A stretch of 64,000 nucleotides of DNA from Pseudomonadota bacterium (GTDB lineage: Archaea; Thermoplasmatota; SW-10-69-26; JACQPN01; JAJPHT01), in contig JAJPHT010000007.1 in assembly GCA_021325135.1 (NCBI GenBank), forward strand, positions 1-64,000, written 5' to 3'. The position numbers were made by a program, and so were the translations under genes. Positions 34,466 through 41,563 of this stretch are shown here, piece after piece. Numbering within the stretch: the first letter of the stretch is position 1; each line of letters starts with the position of its first letter. The notes under the pieces are model-generated. The model saw only the letters and a program-made list of their open reading frames with translations. It had not been told where the DNA came from and searched no databases.

Positions 34466-35587
34466 TCAGGCGAGCCCGGCGCACACGAAGGCGACGCAGA
34501 GGCCCGCGTCCACCTCGCGCGTCGCGGGCGTCGCGCCGGCGTCGAGGCAGACGGGCGCCAGGTAGTCGCCTCCGCAGACGTGGGCGACGCCCCCCGTGGG
34601 GTGGAAGACGAGGCCCGCCTGGAGGTCCGCGATGAGCGTGTAGCCGCCCTGGTTGAGGGAGACGGAAGCGCCTGAGGAGGACGCGTCGGCGCCGACGCCG
34701 AAGCCCTGCCCGCCCGCGTCCTCGCGCACCGCCGCGCCCGCGCCGGGGAGCGCGTGGCAGCTCGTCCACTCCGCGCCCGCCGCGAAGCCCATGGCCTGGT
34801 CGCAGGACGCCACGACGCCGATGCCATCCACGTCGGCCCCGACCACCTCGGTCACGGACTGCGCATCGTCGCCGGGCACGACGTCGAGGCGGTGCTGGAC
34901 GCGGGCCACGAGGCGCACCTCGCCCACGGCCCCGAGGCGGCTCCACGGGACGGAGACGTGCGCGGTGGCCCCAGGCGCGAGGTCGATCTGCCCGGAGAAG
35001 AGCGTCTGGCTCCCCTGGGTGGCCTCCTCGACGAGGGTCACGGCGGCGCCGTCCGCGGAGGCCGGGCCGAGGTTGGCCACGTCGAAGCCCACGACGCGGG
35101 GCTGGAACGCCGGGAGCGCGCCCGCGCCCGTCTCCACGGTGAGGTTCGTCACCTGCAGGTCGGTCGCGGGCTCCAGCGAGACGGTGAACGCATACGAGGT
35201 CGGGTTGGACGACCAGTCGTCGTAGAGCACCCACGACACCGGGCTGGGGCCAGGGAGCGTGAGGGCGACGTCGCCGCCCTGGACCGGTCCGCGGTAGAGG
35301 AGGTTCCCGTCAAGGATGACGGCGATGGAGAGGAAGTCGCCCGACGCGACCGACGAGGTCAGGTGGAGGATGGAGGGCTGGCCGAAGGCCAGGGAGTACC
35401 AGTCCTCGCGGTCGCCGGAGGAGACGTCGAGCGCGCCCTGGTAGGTGCCCACGGAGAGGGGCATCGGAGGGAAGCCGTCGTTGGGCGCGTCGCCCCCCGA
35501 GCCGGCGTCGTCCTGGTCCGCGGCGGACGCCAGGGGGATCGCCAGGAGCGCGACAGGGATCAGGATCGTGAGAAGCTTCCTCGCCAT
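34466..35587 (-). CDS. Secreted protein with PPC-like and CARDB domains
   Basis: Signal peptide; QDDAGSGGDAP, DREDWY, DLQVTNL..VANLG. Confidence 0.75.
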   Translation of the reverse strand: MARKLLTILIPVALLAIPLASAADQDDAGSGGDAPNDGFPPMPLSVGTYQGALDVSSGDREDWYSLAFGQPSILHLTSSVASGDFLSIAVILDGNLLYRGPVQGGDVALTLPGPSPVSWVLYDDWSSNPTSYAFTVSLEPATDLQVTNLTVETGAGALPAFQPRVVGFDVANLGPASADGAAVTLVEEATQGSQTLFSGQIDLAPGATAHVSVPWSRLGAVGEVRLVARVQHRLDVVPGDDAQSVTEVVGADVDGIGVVASCDQAMGFAAGAEWTSCHALPGAGAAVREDAGGQGFGVGADASSSGASVSLNQGGYTLIADLQAGLVFHPTGGVAHVCGGDYLAPVCLDAGATPATREVDAGLCVAFVCAGLA

Positions 35588-35647
35588 GCCGGCGGGACAA
35601 AGGGTCCCGGACGTAACACTTCTCGCGAGGGCGTATGCGGAACGCCC

Positions 35648-35833
35648 TCAGAAGCGGCCGCGGACGCTGAGGCGGAAGGCCTCAAGGTCGTTGGTCGTGC
35701 GGAACTGCTTGGGCTCCCCGACGTTGCCGCAGTGGAGGCACTCCACGGAGGCCTCCTCGTAGGCGAACTCCCCGCCCTCGTGGTCCACGTGCTGGAGGAG
35801 GGTGCTTCCGCACCGCGCGCAGGCGCCGGGCAT
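35648..35833 (-). CDS. Small zinc-ribbon protein
   Basis: CARCG...CLHCG. Confidence 0.65.
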   Translation of the reverse strand: MPGACARCGSTLLQHVDHEGGEFAYEEASVECLHCGNVGEPKQFRTTNDLEAFRLSVRGRF

Positions 35834-35997
35834 GAAGGTCGAGTGGCGTCGGAGGATGCAAAACCCTTCCGCCAGGCCGGTTTGCGTCCGCGGTGCCTGC
35901 CCGCTCCCCCTTCCCTGATTCCGTCGTCAGGGGTGGCGCAATCCTCAAAAAGCAGGGGGCGGCTAGCGCCGCATCTCCCCTTGAGGAAGTGCACCCT

Positions 35998-38217
35998 TTG
36001 GCGAAGGAAGTCACGCTCAAAGTGTCCGAGGCGGTCCAGGAGGACGTGGCGAAGGGCCGCGTCCGCGTGGACGCCGCGACCCGTCTCGATCTCCACCTCA
36101 CCGTCGGCGACGTGGTGGAGATCATCGGCAAGAAGTCCACCGCGGCCATTGTCTGGCGCGCCCACCCCGACGACGAGGGGAAGGGCCTCATCCGCATGGA
36201 CGGCCTCATCCGCGACAACGCGGGCGTGGGCATCGGCGACAAGGTCAGGATCCGGAAGGTCGAGGTCAACCCGGCCAACCGCATCACCCTCGCCCCCGTG
36301 ATCGAAGAGGGGCAGAAGCTCCAGTTCGGCAGCGGCATCGAGGGCGTCGTCAAGCGCGGCCTCTTCAAGCGCCCCGTCACCAAGGGCGACACCGTCATCG
36401 TCCCGGGCATCGCCCTCATCGGGCGCGCGCTCCCCTTCATCGTGGTGGAGATCAGCCCCGCCGGCATCGTGCAGATCACCGAGGGCACCGAGGTCAACAT
36501 CCGCGAGGAGGCCATCTCGGAGTCCGAGCTTGCGGCCCCCAAGGTCACCTACGAGGACGTGGGCGGCCTCAAGGACGAGCTGACCAAGGTCCGCGAGATG
36601 ATCGAGCTTCCCCTGAAGCACCCGGAGCTGTTCGACCGCCTGGGCATCGAGCCCCCCAAGGGCGTGCTCCTCCAGGGCCCCCCCGGCACCGGCAAGACGC
36701 TCATCGCCAAGGCCGTCGCCAACGAGTCGGGCGCCAACTTCTACTCCATCCAGGGCCCCGAGATCATGAGCAAGTTCTACGGCGAGTCCGAGGCGAGGCT
36801 GCGCGAGGTCTTCGAGGAGGCCGAGCAGAACGCTCCCGCCATCATCTTCATCGACGAGATCGACTCCATCGCGTCCAAGCGCGAGGACACGCAGGGCGAG
36901 GTGGAGCGCCGCGTCGTCGCGCAGCTGCTCACGCTCATGGACGGCCTCAAGGGCCGCGGCAAGGTCGTCGTCATCGGCGCCACGAACCGCGTCGACGCCG
37001 TCGACCCCGCGCTGCGCCGCCCGGGCCGCTTCGACCGCGAGATCGAGATCGGCGTGCCCAGCCGCGAAGGCCGCAAGGAGATCATGCAGATCCACACGCG
37101 CTCGATGCCGCTGGACAACAGCTTCGACATCGACTACCTCGTGGACAACAGCCACGGCTTCGTGGGCGCGGACCTCGCCGCGCTGGCGAAGGAAGGCGCC
37201 ATGAAGGCGCTGCGCCGCTACCTCCCCGAGATCGACCTGGACAAGCCCATCCCCACCGAGATGCTGGAGAAGATGGTCATCCGCATGGACGACTTCAAGG
37301 ACGCGCTGCGCGAGATCGAGCCCAGCGCGCTGCGCGAGGTCCTGATCGAGATCCCCCGCACCACGTGGGAGGACGTCGGCGGCCTGGGCGAGCTGAAGCA
37401 GCAGCTCCGCGAGGCCGTCGAGTGGCCCCTCAACAGCCCCGAGGTGTTCAAGCGCATGGGCATCAAGCCCCCGCGCGGCATCCTGCTCTACGGCCCCCCC
37501 GGCACCGGCAAGACGCTGCTGGCCAAGGCCGTCGCCAACGAGAGCCGCGCCAACTTCATCTCGGTGAAGGGCCCCGAAGTGCTCTCCAAGTGGGTCGGCG
37601 AGTCCGAGAAGGCCATCAGGGAGATTTTCAAGAAGGCGAAGCAGGCCAGCCCGTGCATCGTCTTCATGGACGAGATCGACAGCATCGCGCCCCGGCGCAG
37701 CATGGGCTCGTCGGACAGCCACGTCACGGAGCGCATGGTCAACCAGCTTCTCACCAGCATCGACGGCATGGAGGCGCTGGAGGGCATCGTCGTCATCGCG
37801 GCGACGAACCGCCCCGACATCCTCGACCCCGCGTTGCTGCGTGCCGGCCGCTTCGACCGCCTGCTCCAGGCGCCGCCCCCCGACAAGGACGCGCGCAAGA
37901 AGATCCTGGAGATCCACGCCCAGGGCATGCCCCTCAAGGACGTGGACCTGGAGGAGCTTGCCAACCGCACCGGGGGCTACGTGGGCGCGGACCTGCAGTC
38001 CCTCTGCCGCGAGGCCGCCATGCTCGCCCTGCGCGAGAACATGAAGGCCGAGGTCGTGACGATGAAGAACTTCGAGCAGGCGCTGGCGCAGGTGCGCCCC
38101 TCGGTCGACGAGAACACGACCGAGTACTACAAGAAGATCGCCTCCGAGCTCGAAGGCGGCATCATCCGCAAGCAGAAGGAAGCGCGCAACACGCAGAAGG
38201 GCGTCGAGTACCTGTAG
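35998..38217 (+). CDS. cdc48: CDC48/VAT family AAA+ ATPase
   Basis: N-domain plus two AAA modules ([26 protein letters not shown]); C-terminal EYL HbYX-like; TTG start. Confidence 0.97.
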
Positions 38218-38268
38218 GCGAAGCGTTCTTCGGGGTGCGCCTCGTTCCGCGGGAGCGAGGCTGACCCC

Positions 38269-38508
38269 TTGCGAACGCTCCTCCTCGCCCTCCTGCTCGT
38301 GCCCGCGACCTTCGTCCTCGCCGCCCCCGCGTCCGCGGAGGGCTCGCTGCCCTGCCAGGTGACGTACCACCAGGTCTACCTCGACATGGACCACCCCACC
38401 AACGTGCCCGACGGCGTGCAGTGCGAGTCGTGCCACGTCACCTACCACCAGGTGTACCTGGACATGGACCACGCGACGAACGTCTCCGACGGCGTCGAGT
38501 GCGCCTGA
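38269..38508 (+). CDS. Small secreted peptide with two tandem Cys-closed 24-aa units
   Basis: Signal peptide ending ASA; 78-bp internal repeat with many synonymous differences. Confidence 0.8.
   Translation: MRTLLLALLLVPATFVLAAPASAEGSLPCQVTYHQVYLDMDHPTNVPDGVQCESCHVTYHQVYLDMDHATNVSDGVECA
38353..38502 (+). repeat. Two-copy 78-bp-period coding tandem repeat
   Basis: Units start at 38353 and 38431. Confidence 0.85.
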
Positions 38509-38511
38509 GCG

Positions 38512-38820
38512 TCACGCGACCCTGTCGTTCTCGCACGCGATGAGCGCGCCGCGGTAGGAGAACACCGAGGCGCCCGCGCACCCCAGGATCGTCCGCGCCG
38601 CGTCCAGGTCGGCGGGGGAGAGGTCCAGCGTCACGTTCCGCCCGTCGTGCGCCGCCTCGATGCCGCCGCGCAGCGGAGCTGAGAGCCGCTGGAACTGCTC
38701 GTCGGTGAGCGACGCGACGGCGTTGGAGCCTGGCGGCGCAGGGTGGAGACGGATCGAGCCGCCGTAGCTCGACGCGCAGCCCGCGACGAGCAGGCACGCG
38801 ACGAGGAGAAGCGCCCGCAC
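38512..38820 (-). CDS. Small lipoprotein
   Basis: Lipobox VAGC. Confidence 0.65.
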   Translation of the reverse strand: MRALLLVACLLVAGCASSYGGSIRLHPAPPGSNAVASLTDEQFQRLSAPLRGGIEAAHDGRNVTLDLSPADLDAARTILGCAGASVFSYRGALIACENDRVA

Positions 38821-38878
38821 GGCCAGGCATGGACGCGACGGAGCGAAGGCTTTGCGCCACGAGGGCCCTTGGGTCCGC

Positions 38879-39310
38879 GTGGCGAAGCGCATCTGGACCC
38901 TCGGCTACGAGGGCCGCGACCCCAATGGGTTCGTGGCCGCGCTGCGCGAGGCGGACGTGCAGCGCGTCGTCGACGTGCGCGAGCTTCCCCTCTCGCGCAA
39001 GGTGGGCTTCAGCAAGGCCTCCCTCGCGCGCGGGCTGGAGGCCGCGGGCATCGCGTACACGCACCTGCGCGCGCTGGGGACTCCCCGGCCCATCCGCCAC
39101 GCGCTGAAGTCCGGCGGCGACCCCGAGACGTTCCGCCGCGACTACCGCGCCTACGCCGAGACGCAGCCCGAGGCCTTGGCCCAACTGGAGGATCTCGCGC
39201 GGCGCGAGCGCGTCGCCATGCTCTGCGTCGAGGCCACGGCCGACGTGTGCCACCGCGGCGTCCTGGGGGAGATGCTGAAGGAGCGCGGCTGGCGCGTCAC
39301 GCACCTCTGA
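38879..39310 (+). CDS. DUF488 family protein
   Basis: IWTLGYEG, VDVRELPLSRK.GFSK, MLCVE....CHR. Confidence 0.88.
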   Translation: MAKRIWTLGYEGRDPNGFVAALREADVQRVVDVRELPLSRKVGFSKASLARGLEAAGIAYTHLRALGTPRPIRHALKSGGDPETFRRDYRAYAETQPEALAQLEDLARRERVAMLCVEATADVCHRGVLGEMLKERGWRVTHL

Positions 39311-39363
39311 GCCGCCTAGGCTCTCCGGAGAACGCTTGAGCCTGCGCGGCGCGATGCCGCCGC

Positions 39364-40209
39364 ATGCGCGCCCCCGCGCTCATCACCGCCCTTCTTCTCG
39401 CGCTCCCCTTGGCGGGGGCCTCCATCCTGCCCCCGTCGGACCTGCCGGTGCTCGTCCACGCGGAGGGGGACGGCCACGGCTGGATGTCCATGCGCGTCCG
39501 CACCGACGGCAGCCCCTTCGTCGTGGAGATCGAAGGCCTCGGCGCCCAAGCCCCCGTGCTCGTGATCATGGACATGCTCGACGGGAGCGGCGCGAGCCTG
39601 GGCCACGGCCTCACCGGCGGCTTCTCCGGCTGGCAGGGCGCCTACGTCACCGGCAGCCTCGCGGGCCAGGACGCGCGCGTGGAGCAGATGTCCGGCCAGG
39701 GCAGCCTGGGCTTCGGCCTCAACGCGCTGTTCAACGACCCCGCCGCCCCCGGGCCCCGGCTCGTGGGCACCTACGCCTTCGTCATGTGGGTGGGCGGCGA
39801 GACGCGGTCGTGGGACGGCGACGTGCGCGGCGGCCCCGGCATCGAGGTGCTTGGCGTCGACCACGGCGAGCGCACGATGCTCGCCAGCGCGCGCAGCTTC
39901 CAGGCGACCGCCAACGCGGGCGCGACCGCCTTGGGCCTCAGCGCCCACGCGGTGGTGGACGGCACGGTGCGGTTCCACGCGGAGGACCACCCCTTCGGCC
40001 TCTACGAGCCGTGGCTTCCCGGCGCGTGGACGACCACGACCATGGACACCCCTGCCGGCACGCAGGCGTGCGCGTGCGAGCGGTTCGACGCGTCGGGGCC
40101 TGGCGCGCTGGGGCCCGGCGACTACGCGTTCCACCTCACGGGCGCCAGCGCGGGGCTGGAAGGGCCCGACGACGTGTTCCTCACCTTCGCCGACGCGCGC
40201 GTCCCGTGA
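39364..40209 (+). CDS. Secreted beta-rich hypothetical protein
   Basis: Signal peptide; host codon usage. Confidence 0.7.
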   Translation: MRAPALITALLLALPLAGASILPPSDLPVLVHAEGDGHGWMSMRVRTDGSPFVVEIEGLGAQAPVLVIMDMLDGSGASLGHGLTGGFSGWQGAYVTGSLAGQDARVEQMSGQGSLGFGLNALFNDPAAPGPRLVGTYAFVMWVGGETRSWDGDVRGGPGIEVLGVDHGERTMLASARSFQATANAGATALGLSAHAVVDGTVRFHAEDHPFGLYEPWLPGAWTTTTMDTPAGTQACACERFDASGPGALGPGDYAFHLTGASAGLEGPDDVFLTFADARVP

Positions 40210-40286
40210 GGGCTTGACCCGTTCGCGGAGCCCGGCGCGTGCGCGGGCGAAACGCATGTGCGCCCACCCGCGGCTGCACGCCGCGC

Positions 40287-40469
40287 ATGAAGGCTGCCCT
40301 CCTCGCTCTCTGCGCGCTCTCGCTTCTGGTCGTCGTGGCGCCCGCCGTCGACGCCTCGCCCGGCACCATCACCCGCTGCGAGCTGAAGTACACCGACCTG
40401 GACACGATCTTCGCGCCCCAGGGCCAGGACCTCCCCTCCGTGCCCACCGGCGTCCAGTGCTACTACTGA
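40287..40469 (+). CDS. Small secreted Cys-closed peptide
   Basis: Signal peptide ending VDA; CELKY...VPTGVQC. Confidence 0.75.
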   Translation: MKAALLALCALSLLVVVAPAVDASPGTITRCELKYTDLDTIFAPQGQDLPSVPTGVQCYY

Positions 40470-40478
40470 GGCGAGACG

Positions 40479-40670
40479 ATGCGCGCGTTCCTCCTCTCCC
40501 TTCTCCTCGTGGGCGCCTGCGTGGCGCTCGTCCCCGCCGCCAGCGCGACGTGCGTCGAGGGCGTGTGCGCTCCCACCTGCCACTTGACGTACTCCGAGAA
40601 GATCACCATCTACAACGTGGACGGCCGCCCCACGGTCGTGCCCGTCCCCAACGGCTACCAGTGCTCGTGA
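40479..40670 (+). CDS. Small secreted Cys-closed peptide
   Basis: Signal peptide ending ASA; CHLTY...VPNGYQC. Confidence 0.75.
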   Translation: MRAFLLSLLLVGACVALVPAASATCVEGVCAPTCHLTYSEKITIYNVDGRPTVVPVPNGYQCS

Positions 40671-40674
40671 GCCC

Positions 40675-40893
40675 TCAGGGCTTCAGCCGCCCGTCGCGGT
40701 AGAGGCCCTCATCGTGCATGGCGCCGCCGCGCCAGTAGAACACGTAGGCGAGCAGGCCGCCCACGACCACGACGACGATGGCCGCCAGCGCGACCGAGGC
40801 CAGGAGGCTGCCGTCCGGGGGCAGCGTGGACTCCTGGGGCGCGCTGGAGTTGGGGGCGAGCAGGAGCGCCAGGAGAAGCGCGGCGCCGCGCAT
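40675..40893 (-). CDS. Small single-pass membrane protein
   Basis: Signal-like N-terminus plus TM; abuts the upstream gene. Confidence 0.55.
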   Translation of the reverse strand: MRGAALLLALLLAPNSSAPQESTLPPDGSLLASVALAAIVVVVVGGLLAYVFYWRGGAMHDEGLYRDGRLKP

Positions 40894-40894
40894 C

Positions 40895-41563
40895 TCAGAT
40901 CCGGGGCATCCTGCCGTAGCGGTACGCGCGCCTCGGCGTCTCGGAGACGCGGCGCTCCTCTCCGCGCGGGGTGTAGAGGGCCCCGGAGACCGCGCCCGCG
41001 ATGCCCGCGGCCAGCAGGCACGCGACGACGTAGATCACGCCGGCAGAGGTGCCGTAGTAGCCGAGGCTCGTCGTCCAGCCCGGACGCAGGTAGAGCCCGC
41101 TGGGCCACGCGACGTTGGCGAGGTCCACGCCCGCCGCGTTGACGCCCATGGCGAAGCCGATGGCGGTGAGGATCGCCAGCGCGAGGAGCCCGACCAGCGT
41201 GCCCACGGCGCCGCCCAGGGCGCCTTGCCCGCCGTCGCGCGTCCTCGTGCCGGCCCAGAAGCCGCCGAACGCGGCGAGGATCGGGCCCGCCACCAGGGGG
41301 AGGAGGCCCACGAGGGAGGCCGCGCCCAGGACGGGGGACTGCGTGGGGTCCGCGAGGTTCACGCCTTTGATCGCATAGGCCGAGGAGAAGGCGAGGATGC
41401 CTGCCGCGACGCCCAAGGCGACGAAGAGCCCCAGGACGCCCAGCCCGGAGCGCACCCAGTCGAGGGCGTCGCTCGTGCCGTAGGCCGGCTGGCGGCTGGG
41501 GAGCGCGGCCCGCTCCTCTCGGTCGTAAGGCTCGTCGTAGGGGTCTCGACGGTAGACTGCCAT
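40895..41563 (-). CDS. 4-TM membrane protein
   Basis: Gly/Ala-rich TM helices. Confidence 0.7.
   Translation of the reverse strand: MAVYRRDPYDEPYDREERAALPSRQPAYGTSDALDWVRSGLGVLGLFVALGVAAGILAFSSAYAIKGVNLADPTQSPVLGAASLVGLLPLVAGPILAAFGGFWAGTRTRDGGQGALGGAVGTLVGLLALAILTAIGFAMGVNAAGVDLANVAWPSGLYLRPGWTTSLGYYGTSAGVIYVVACLLAAGIAGAVSGALYTPRGEERRVSETPRRAYRYGRMPRI

Follow-up and report, generated by a model that had tools for sequence, protein, structure and literature searches.

The class IIb bacteriocins (lactococcin G, plantaricin EF) and the Sec-dependent class II bacteriocins (enterocin P) are products of Firmicutes, and class IIa bacteriocins carry a disulfide-closed N-terminal hairpin. In archaea, sulfolobicin needs two adjacent genes, SulA and SulB, whose products carry signal sequences and are proteins of ~20 kDa. 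To our knowledge, archaeal secreted peptides have been described almost only from haloarchaea and Sulfolobales, and the interactions of uncultured soil archaea with their neighbors are poorly known. In this work, we describe a lineage-restricted, rare, and undescribed family of Sec-exported mini-proteins, represented by three small genes in a 64,000-nucleotide stretch of DNA (G000:C45:1-64000, hereafter the window) from a Thermoplasmatota assembly of 3.77 Mb with a GC content of 71.6%. This description is secure. The kind of molecule is familiar, namely a small secreted disulfide peptide with variable loops, and a role in antagonism or recognition is tentatively proposed.

As with class IIb bacteriocins, small peptide genes occur as neighboring pairs of paralogous or complementary members, here at at least 10 loci. 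Class II peptides in general are unmodified save for possible disulfides, and the Sec-dependent ones are likewise exported by an N-terminal signal. However, there is no sequence similarity to class II bacteriocins, the host here is an archaeon, and the peptides are anionic instead of cationic and amphiphilic-helical. Sec-type AxA leaders are present, without the double-glycine leader, ATP-binding cassette (ABC) exporter, and adjacent immunity gene of class IIb systems. The archaeocins (halocin C8, other microhalocins, and sulfolobicin) are also secreted archaeal peptides or proteins, although antagonism is known for the archaeocins only. Halocin C8 is small and cysteine-rich with 10 Cys, a twin-arginine translocation (Tat) signal, a fused immunity domain, and neighboring ABC transporter genes (bioRxiv 10.64898/2026.07.27.741052). 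In contrast, the present family has 2–4 Cys per unit and a signal with a single K/R and no twin arginine, and an NCBIfam search gave no match to the halocin C8 domain (TIGR04449-type), with only a spurious UshA-like match at E-values up to 10.

Among eukaryotic families, conotoxins, defensins, and the plant SCR/SP11 proteins likewise combine a conserved signal peptide and cysteine scaffold with hypervariable inter-cysteine loops, paralogues in tandem, and genes that turn over quickly. In those families, the combination accompanies ligands that bind a target in conflict or recognition. There is no homology, the cysteine framework is another one, and the host here is prokaryotic, so that the comparison is an analogy only.

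Family genes in the window and in the host genome

In the labels used below, G stands for genomes (G000 is the host), L for loci or contigs, P for family proteins, and C33 and C45 for contigs. A sequence-only reading of the window had named three genes with four units of a common cysteine-bounded motif, and open reading frame (ORF) calls and pattern matching recovered all of them at the positions claimed. Gene 1 (P0001; 38269..38508, + strand) encodes 79 amino acids (aa) from a TTG start that lines up with the ATG of its homologues. Its predicted signal peptide of 23 aa (38269..38337) ends in A-S-A, as judged from the sequence and from alignment to the signal peptides of the family, and is followed by two tandem 2-Cys units of the ‘YLDMDH’ loop type, both found by pattern and by hidden Markov model (HMM): unit 1a, CQVTY...VPDGVQC (38353..38424), and unit 1b, CHVTY...VSDGVEC (38431..38502). 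Orthologue-like to it are P0013 with two units and P0008 with three, the latter from G002 at the same position after CDC48.

Gene 2 (P0002; 40287..40469, + strand) encodes 60 aa with a predicted signal peptide ending in V-D-A (40287-40355), one 2-Cys unit (CELKY...VPTGVQC, 40377..40460, pattern and HMM), and a QCYY end, and it clusters with 2-Cys relatives of the form ‘GFGxC...C[YA][YW]’. Gene 3 (P0003; 40479..40670, + strand) starts 9 nucleotides (nt) past the stop of gene 2, with GAGG 8–11 nt upstream of its ATG. It encodes 63 aa, with a predicted signal peptide ending in A-S-A (40479-40547), a degenerate N-terminal knot read from the sequence as TCVEGVCAPTC (40548-40580), and a 4-Cys hairpin unit, CHLTY...VPNGYQC (40578..40664), supported by pattern, HMM, and AlphaFold2. 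The signal regions of the three genes each have one K/R, a hydrophobic stretch of 15–20 residues, and an AxA site (ASA, VDA, and ASA, respectively). These N-termini fit substrates of Sec and signal peptidase I, in agreement with the claim of Sec signal peptides.

The three ORFs are confirmed as real genes because of their host-like codon bias, the purifying pattern between the internal units of gene 1, and the homologues found elsewhere. GC content at the three codon positions was 0.59–0.69, 0.39–0.50, and 0.93–0.97, compared with 0.67, 0.40, and 0.96 for the adjoining CDC48 gene, and DUF488 was alike; GC at third positions (GC3) was 0.97, 0.93, and 0.95 for genes 1, 2, and 3. Units 1a and 1b differ by 8 synonymous and 4 non-synonymous changes, giving a ratio of non-synonymous to synonymous rates (dN/dS) of 0.07 by the Nei–Gojobori method, which agrees with the synonymous divergence that had been pointed out between them.

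In a six-frame translation of the whole genome, the full motif pattern of the sequence-only reading gave 4 matches and the tail V[PS]xG[VYF][QE]C gave 5, the fifth being in one further gene; all lay within family genes, and neither had a match in the reversed or the triplet-shuffled genome. When the unit HMM was run against the 47,677 stop-to-stop ORFs of the genome, five ORFs scored 54–80 bits and the next best 11 bits. The genome thus holds five family genes. Within it, the motif is restricted to the family; the list of three genes, although correct as far as it went, was incomplete. The other two form a tandem pair on contig C33, 4 nt apart: P0004 (76 aa, 146829-147059) and P0005 (60 aa, GTG start, 147064-147246, or 8065-8247 of L001), which has GGTGA 5–9 nt upstream. 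The P0005 gene sits inside a longer, spurious same-frame ORF of 126 aa with a TTG start, and automatic annotation may therefore mis-start or skip it.

A GAGGCT(T)GAC-like string was also seen 5′ of three of the five genes (38256-38268, 40208-40222, and C33 ~146812-146828), with varying spacing to the start. It may be only a Shine–Dalgarno-like GAGG or chance.

Family signature and distribution

Word-seeded profile searches of 5.8 billion clusters yielded ~30 further proteins of 55–123 aa. Those with a named source are annotated as ‘hypothetical protein’ of Thermoplasmata or Thermoplasmatota metagenome-assembled genomes, and the others are unnamed metagenome ORFs. In the family alignments, the signature begins with M-[KR]-hydrophobic signal-A-x-A, followed in most members by C-x-P-P-N-C-P-G-F-G-x-C; then come 13–30 variable residues, often ending in V-P-x-G-x-[EDQ], and finally C-[Y/A/K/N/V/G]-[Y/W] and the stop. 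The C-x-PPNC-PGFG-x-C element and the C-terminal CYY of most relatives, which are the most conserved part of the family, had been missed in the sequence-only reading, not being visible from the three genes. Two types occur, a 4-Cys type and a 2-Cys type reduced to (P)-G-F-G-x-C ... C-[YA]-[YW]. Of the window proteins, P0003 is of the 4-Cys type with its degenerate knot, and P0001 and P0002 consist of 2-Cys units. The mature peptides have 29–56 residues, or 97 in the three-unit form. Across 34 mature peptides, the cysteine count was even (2, 4, or 8) in all 34, the net charge was 0 to −11 with a median of −3, and each had 2–9 aromatic residues.

The PGFG string differs from the motif of archaeosortase substrates. 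In PGF-CTERM proteins, a C-terminal transmembrane helix and then a basic tail come after the PGF motif; here, PGFG lies at the mature N-terminus, and the C-Y-Y end follows 20–40 residues later without a hydrophobic segment.

The family is rare. When 1.84 billion representative proteins were searched exhaustively by HMMER with the profile of the 4-Cys type, 12 matches at E ≤ 0.001 were obtained. All of them are 55–123 aa long, and larger proteins thus do not contain the module as a domain. Six-frame searches found the family in 2 of the 21 genomes of the class and gave matches in 6 of the 401 genomes of the phylum, namely the host, its congener G002, G006 of the same family, G020 of the same class, G246 of another family, and G229. 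The G229 match was rejected as spurious, as it contains stop codons and lacks a signal peptide. A degenerate DNA pattern for C-x-PPNCPGFG-x-C, run against 185,579 species representatives, found one other genome, Thermoplasmata archaeon BP_742 (G002), and the pattern also occurs in two Joint Genome Institute metagenome contigs. Homologues thus exist in other Thermoplasmata, and they are present on soil metagenome contigs as well.

The family is considered undescribed because no profile, structure, or paper was found for it. None of the five genome members and 23 aligned members scored above a curated cut-off in Pfam-A or NCBIfam, the best match being Cytochrome_C554 for P0001 only (E 0.0015, 19.9 bits, cut-off 20.8). 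A sequence profile search of the PDB gave no match, the motif string appeared in no paper, and keyword searches of the literature returned no such peptides in Thermoplasmata. The family had gone unrecognized in the sequence-only reading, and it matches no described family in Pfam, NCBIfam, or the PDB sequences.

Predicted structure

Mature P0003 was modeled with AlphaFold2 from a 28-row family alignment with a mean predicted local distance difference test score (pLDDT) of 87.5. The model is a single long hairpin of strands 11–22 and 28–39, bounded by Cys11 and Cys39, with short bridges around Cys2 and Cys7. For mature P0001, a 5-row alignment gave a pLDDT of 76.4 and four strands, that is, one hairpin per unit (strands 8–14 and 20–27 of the mature peptide for unit 1a, 32–42 and 45–55 for unit 1b). 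Each unit is thus predicted to be a beta-hairpin whose open end is closed by two invariant cysteines. This agrees with the cysteine-closed hairpin proposed earlier, the two conserved cysteines being the first and last residues of the modeled hairpin.

Most members carry an additional N-terminal C-x4-C loop (CxPPNC) followed by PGFG, and an aromatic dipeptide stands directly past the last cysteine. The conserved positions are V/L at C3+2, Y/W at C3+4, V/L/Y at C4−2, the PGF element, and the terminal aromatic pair. Since these cluster at the closed end, we infer a constant base and a variable distal tip from the alignment and the predicted secondary structure. Bonding of C3 to C4 and of C1 to C2 is implied by the cysteine pattern, because the 2-Cys units retain exactly the third and fourth cysteines. 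A DsbA-like Thioredoxin_4 gene is present in the genome, and no member of the VKOR family was found there.

Foldseek against the PDB and a wide VIA search returned nothing significant, and the top rows for both models were long beta-hairpin fingers, tied at their base by disulfides, of cystine-knot cytokines (NGF, IL-17, PTTH, TGF-beta/GDNF), which are dimeric receptor ligands. In contrast to these cytokines, the family has no knot topology, no sequence relation to them, and one or two predicted disulfides per unit. The best values were a Foldseek E of 0.97 and a VIA Z of 3.3, the latter with a root-mean-square deviation (rmsd) of 3.7 Å over 53 residues, and the cystine-knot matches as a whole (E ≥ 0.97, Z ≤ 3.3, rmsd 3.4–5 Å) lie within the range of chance hairpin geometry. 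Among the ESM Atlas look-alikes of P0005, there was no usable feature match, and the structure rows were unrelated large proteins below a TM score of 0.51.

Evolution of the loops and pairing of the units

Five orthologue-like pairs were split into signal peptide, frame, and inter-cysteine loop, and the differences were pooled by the Nei–Gojobori method. The loop had a dN/dS of 0.92 (121 non-synonymous and 39 synonymous differences), the frame 0.24, and the signal peptide 0.39, so that the loop rate was ~4 times the frame rate. Four of the five loops had values of 0.8–2.2, the exception being the YLDMDH-type loop of P0001/P0013 at 0.36. Constant ends with variable middles, claimed originally between paralogues, were seen both there and between orthologue-like pairs. 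It is strongly supported that the base is conserved, that the rate of change in the tip is near-neutral or diversifying, and that whole genes are gained and lost between species of one genus.

The units also usually occur in twos, as gene pairs or fused, a feature that had been overlooked in the sequence-only reading. Adjacent pairs occur at at least 10 loci, with paralogous genes 4–24 nt apart or, at one locus, overlapping. These are P0002 with P0003 in the window, P0004 with P0005 on C33, P0006 with P0008 in G002, the overlapping P0033 and P0023 in L010, P0042 and P0013 each with a 60-aa gene in L031 and L045, a P0004-like with a P0005-like gene in each of L046 and L049, P0035 with P0034 in G006, and P0037 with P0036 in G020. 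Fused forms exist as well, with two units in P0001, P0013, and P0027 (G246) and three in P0008. Adjacency and independent fusions suggest that the units act together. A complex prediction for mature P0003 and mature P0002, each with its own alignment, scored 0.02 and was uninformative either way.

Proposed function and alternative explanations

The roles offered in the sequence-only reading, an archaeocin-like antimicrobial, a signal, or a polymerizing subunit, are conjecture. By analogy with known families, our best guess, held with less than even confidence, is that the peptides would be diffusible extracellular ligands for antagonism or recognition. This is ranked first because of the conserved signal and cysteine scaffold, the hypervariable loops, the tandem paralogues, and the presence or absence of the genes among congeners, a combination known from secreted ligands of conflict or recognition, many bacteriocins included; a role in metabolism or in core envelope structure seems less likely. 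The peptides would be cleaved by signal peptidase I and oxidized outside the cell to give free, soluble, acidic ligands, whose variable tip would bind an external target in cell-to-cell antagonism (archaeocin-like, possibly as a two-component agent) or in recognition and signaling. No enzyme, transporter, or anchor is needed for this, with a Sec signal and an AxA site present and no C-terminal membrane segment.

A more specific form of this proposal, possible but held with clearly less confidence, is a two-component hypervariable hairpin system, in which the stapled base would present a fast-evolving tip and two units would act together on a target cell, for antagonism or for kin or strain recognition. 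If so, the family would be an archaeocin- or pheromone-like one outside the haloarchaea and Sulfolobales, made with the Sec pathway alone and without a linked immunity or receptor gene.

Several observations weigh against a diffusible ligand and its two-component form. In contrast to most antimicrobial hairpins that act on membranes, the peptides are anionic, and their disulfide bonds are predicted ones. Lone one-unit genes exist (P0012 in L012 and P0041 on its contig), so pairing is not obligatory. At the loci compared, no conserved immunity gene, dedicated exporter, receptor, or modifying enzyme lies beside the family genes, and this speaks against the classical designs of bacteriocin or quorum-sensing systems. 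A 222-aa membrane protein that is convergent to some of the pairs was rejected as a partner, since G001, G004, and G007 also carry it and have no peptide gene close to it. Finally, at the 95% GC3 of the genome, the dS of ~0.5–0.6 is close to saturation, and the adjoining DUF488 gene had dN/dS values of 0.24–0.72 on the same contigs; therefore, only the contrast between loop and frame is to be trusted, not the absolute values.

The strongest alternative, although an unlikely one, is that the peptides are structural or matrix subunits, with amphipathic hairpins that would stack on the cell surface as a polymer of the cross-beta or sheet kind (pilus, sheath, or amyloid-like), the paralogues serving as major and minor (nucleator) subunits and the multi-unit proteins resembling curlin repeats. 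A bare two-stranded hairpin, as predicted, could not bury its hydrophobic face alone, the units are repeated along single chains and in paired paralogous genes, and the peptides are aromatic-rich with aromatic ends, all of which would suit a polymer. However, structural subunits do not usually have hypervariable loops or come and go between congeners, the signal peptide differs from the class III (pilin) type, and no conserved assembly, secretion, or anchoring genes lie nearby. The family also differs from the curli and Fap amyloid subunits in having no conserved accessory genes and no match to Curlin or any other amyloid or pilin family in Pfam.

Binding of metals such as copper or zinc outside the cell, through the cysteines and/or His/Asp/Met-rich loops (Y-L-D-M-D-H, C-H) and possibly with two units per ion, is less probable still. 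The YLDMDH[AP]T loop is conserved in the units of P0001, P0013, and P0008 and in P0028, with the subtype loop dN/dS of 0.36, and in 13 of 28 aligned units the residue after the third Cys is a His. Copper-related genes lie near some loci (a weak cupredoxin-like match and a MopE-like protein), and C33 carries an ORF that reads as HMA-like by its GMTCxxC motif. Nevertheless, these neighbors vary by locus and are not conserved, the conserved His/Met/Asp are confined to one subtype and most loops are unconserved, and the Cx4Cx5C...C spacing is not a known zinc-ribbon or CxxC pattern. This explanation would apply mainly to the YLDMDH subtype, that is, to gene 1.

It is very improbable that the family consists of membrane-anchored lipoproteins, in which the Cys after A-[SA]-A of 4-Cys members is lipidated and the peptides decorate the surface instead of diffusing. 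A Cys does stand directly past AxA in most 4-Cys members (ASAC, AAAC, ADAC), and ASAC fits the loosest lipobox definitions. However, a Cys near the cleavage site is missing from the 2-Cys members, P0001 and P0002 among them, and Asp at −2 (VADAC) or Thr at −1 (ASATC) violates the lipobox [LVI][ASTVI][GAS]C. Moreover, lipoprotein-like ORFs of the host and of a relative use L-x-[AV]-G-C (LLVAGC at 38512-38892, LLFVGC in L010), and if the first Cys were lipidated, the cysteines that remain would be odd in number, whereas the counts are always even.

That the genes are unexpressed small ORFs, due to chance or without function, in a GC-rich genome is effectively refuted by conservation: long spurious ORFs do abound at 72% GC, but the GC3 of 0.93–0.97 is frame-specific, dN/dS between internal units is 0.07, the motif is absent from shuffled controls, and homologues with conserved cysteines occur across genera, one of them in another family. 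A 970-aa open frame (35560-38472, − strand), antisense to CDC48 and reaching into gene 1, is a typical spurious ORF of such a genome and could mislead gene callers.

With 29–56 residues and one or two predicted disulfides, the peptides are short enough for chemical synthesis and directly testable. If active, they would provide a new and minimal scaffold for peptides and a first entry point to conflict or communication in soil Thermoplasmata; if inert, they would be a clean example of small genes that are annotated as ‘hypothetical’ or overlooked by standard annotation.

Genomic neighborhood

In the genus and its near relatives, the genes lie in a backbone of CDC48, a lipoprotein-like ORF (LxxGC), DUF488, sometimes a secreted protein of 263–281 aa, hemerythrin, SRPBCC, and DUF6788. 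The slot directly after CDC48 holds P0001 in the host and P0006 with P0008 in G002. The slot after DUF488 or the secreted protein holds P0002 with P0003 in the host and is also used in L010, L012, L031, and L045, with different peptide types in different relatives. In the congeners G001 and G004, hemerythrin follows directly after DUF488 with no peptide gene between them, and G002 has no counterparts of P0002 to P0005. The post-DUF488 block is a small hot spot of gene replacement. At the distant loci in G246, G020, and C33, the neighbors are unrelated. Hemerythrin (165–182 aa, minus strand) is found in this neighborhood in L010, L012, L031, G001, G002, and G004. The host has no hemerythrin at this block, where 72-aa and 222-aa membrane genes are followed directly by SRPBCC.

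A secreted protein of 281 aa (39364-40209, + strand), with no Pfam match and a C-x-C near its C-terminus, lies directly upstream of P0002/P0003. Its counterpart of 263 aa, 39% identical and with the C-x-C conserved, has the same position beside the pair in metagenome contig L010. Nothing related lies beside the fused gene in G246, and it was rejected as a partner. The SRPBCC genes near both host loci are unrelated to each other and were likewise rejected.

Convergent to the pair in the window are a 72-aa signal/anchor protein (40675-40893, − strand), rejected as a partner because it is not conserved with the peptides, and the 222-aa multi-pass Gly/Ala-rich membrane protein (40895-41563, − strand), which has no Pfam match. 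The 222-aa protein is also convergent to the pairs in L046 and L049, and among the 41 genomes searched, copies 41–67% identical to it are confined to the archaeal family of the host. A 145-aa membrane protein in L010, likewise rejected as a partner, shows no relationship to the 222-aa protein.

Between gene 1 and the secreted protein, a 126-aa lipoprotein-like ORF (38512-38892, − strand, lipobox LLVAGC) has an overlap of ~40 nt with the oppositely oriented DUF488 ORF (38852-39310, + strand, listed with a TTG start) at the 5′ end of the latter. The homology of DUF488 begins near residue 11, and its true start probably lies further downstream. Furthermore, at a contig end in G006 (L023, G006:C225, positions 1-126), a microsatellite-like TGC TGG repeat that translates to CWCSCWCS was seen, which is probably a low-complexity repeat of the assembly end and unrelated to the peptide family.

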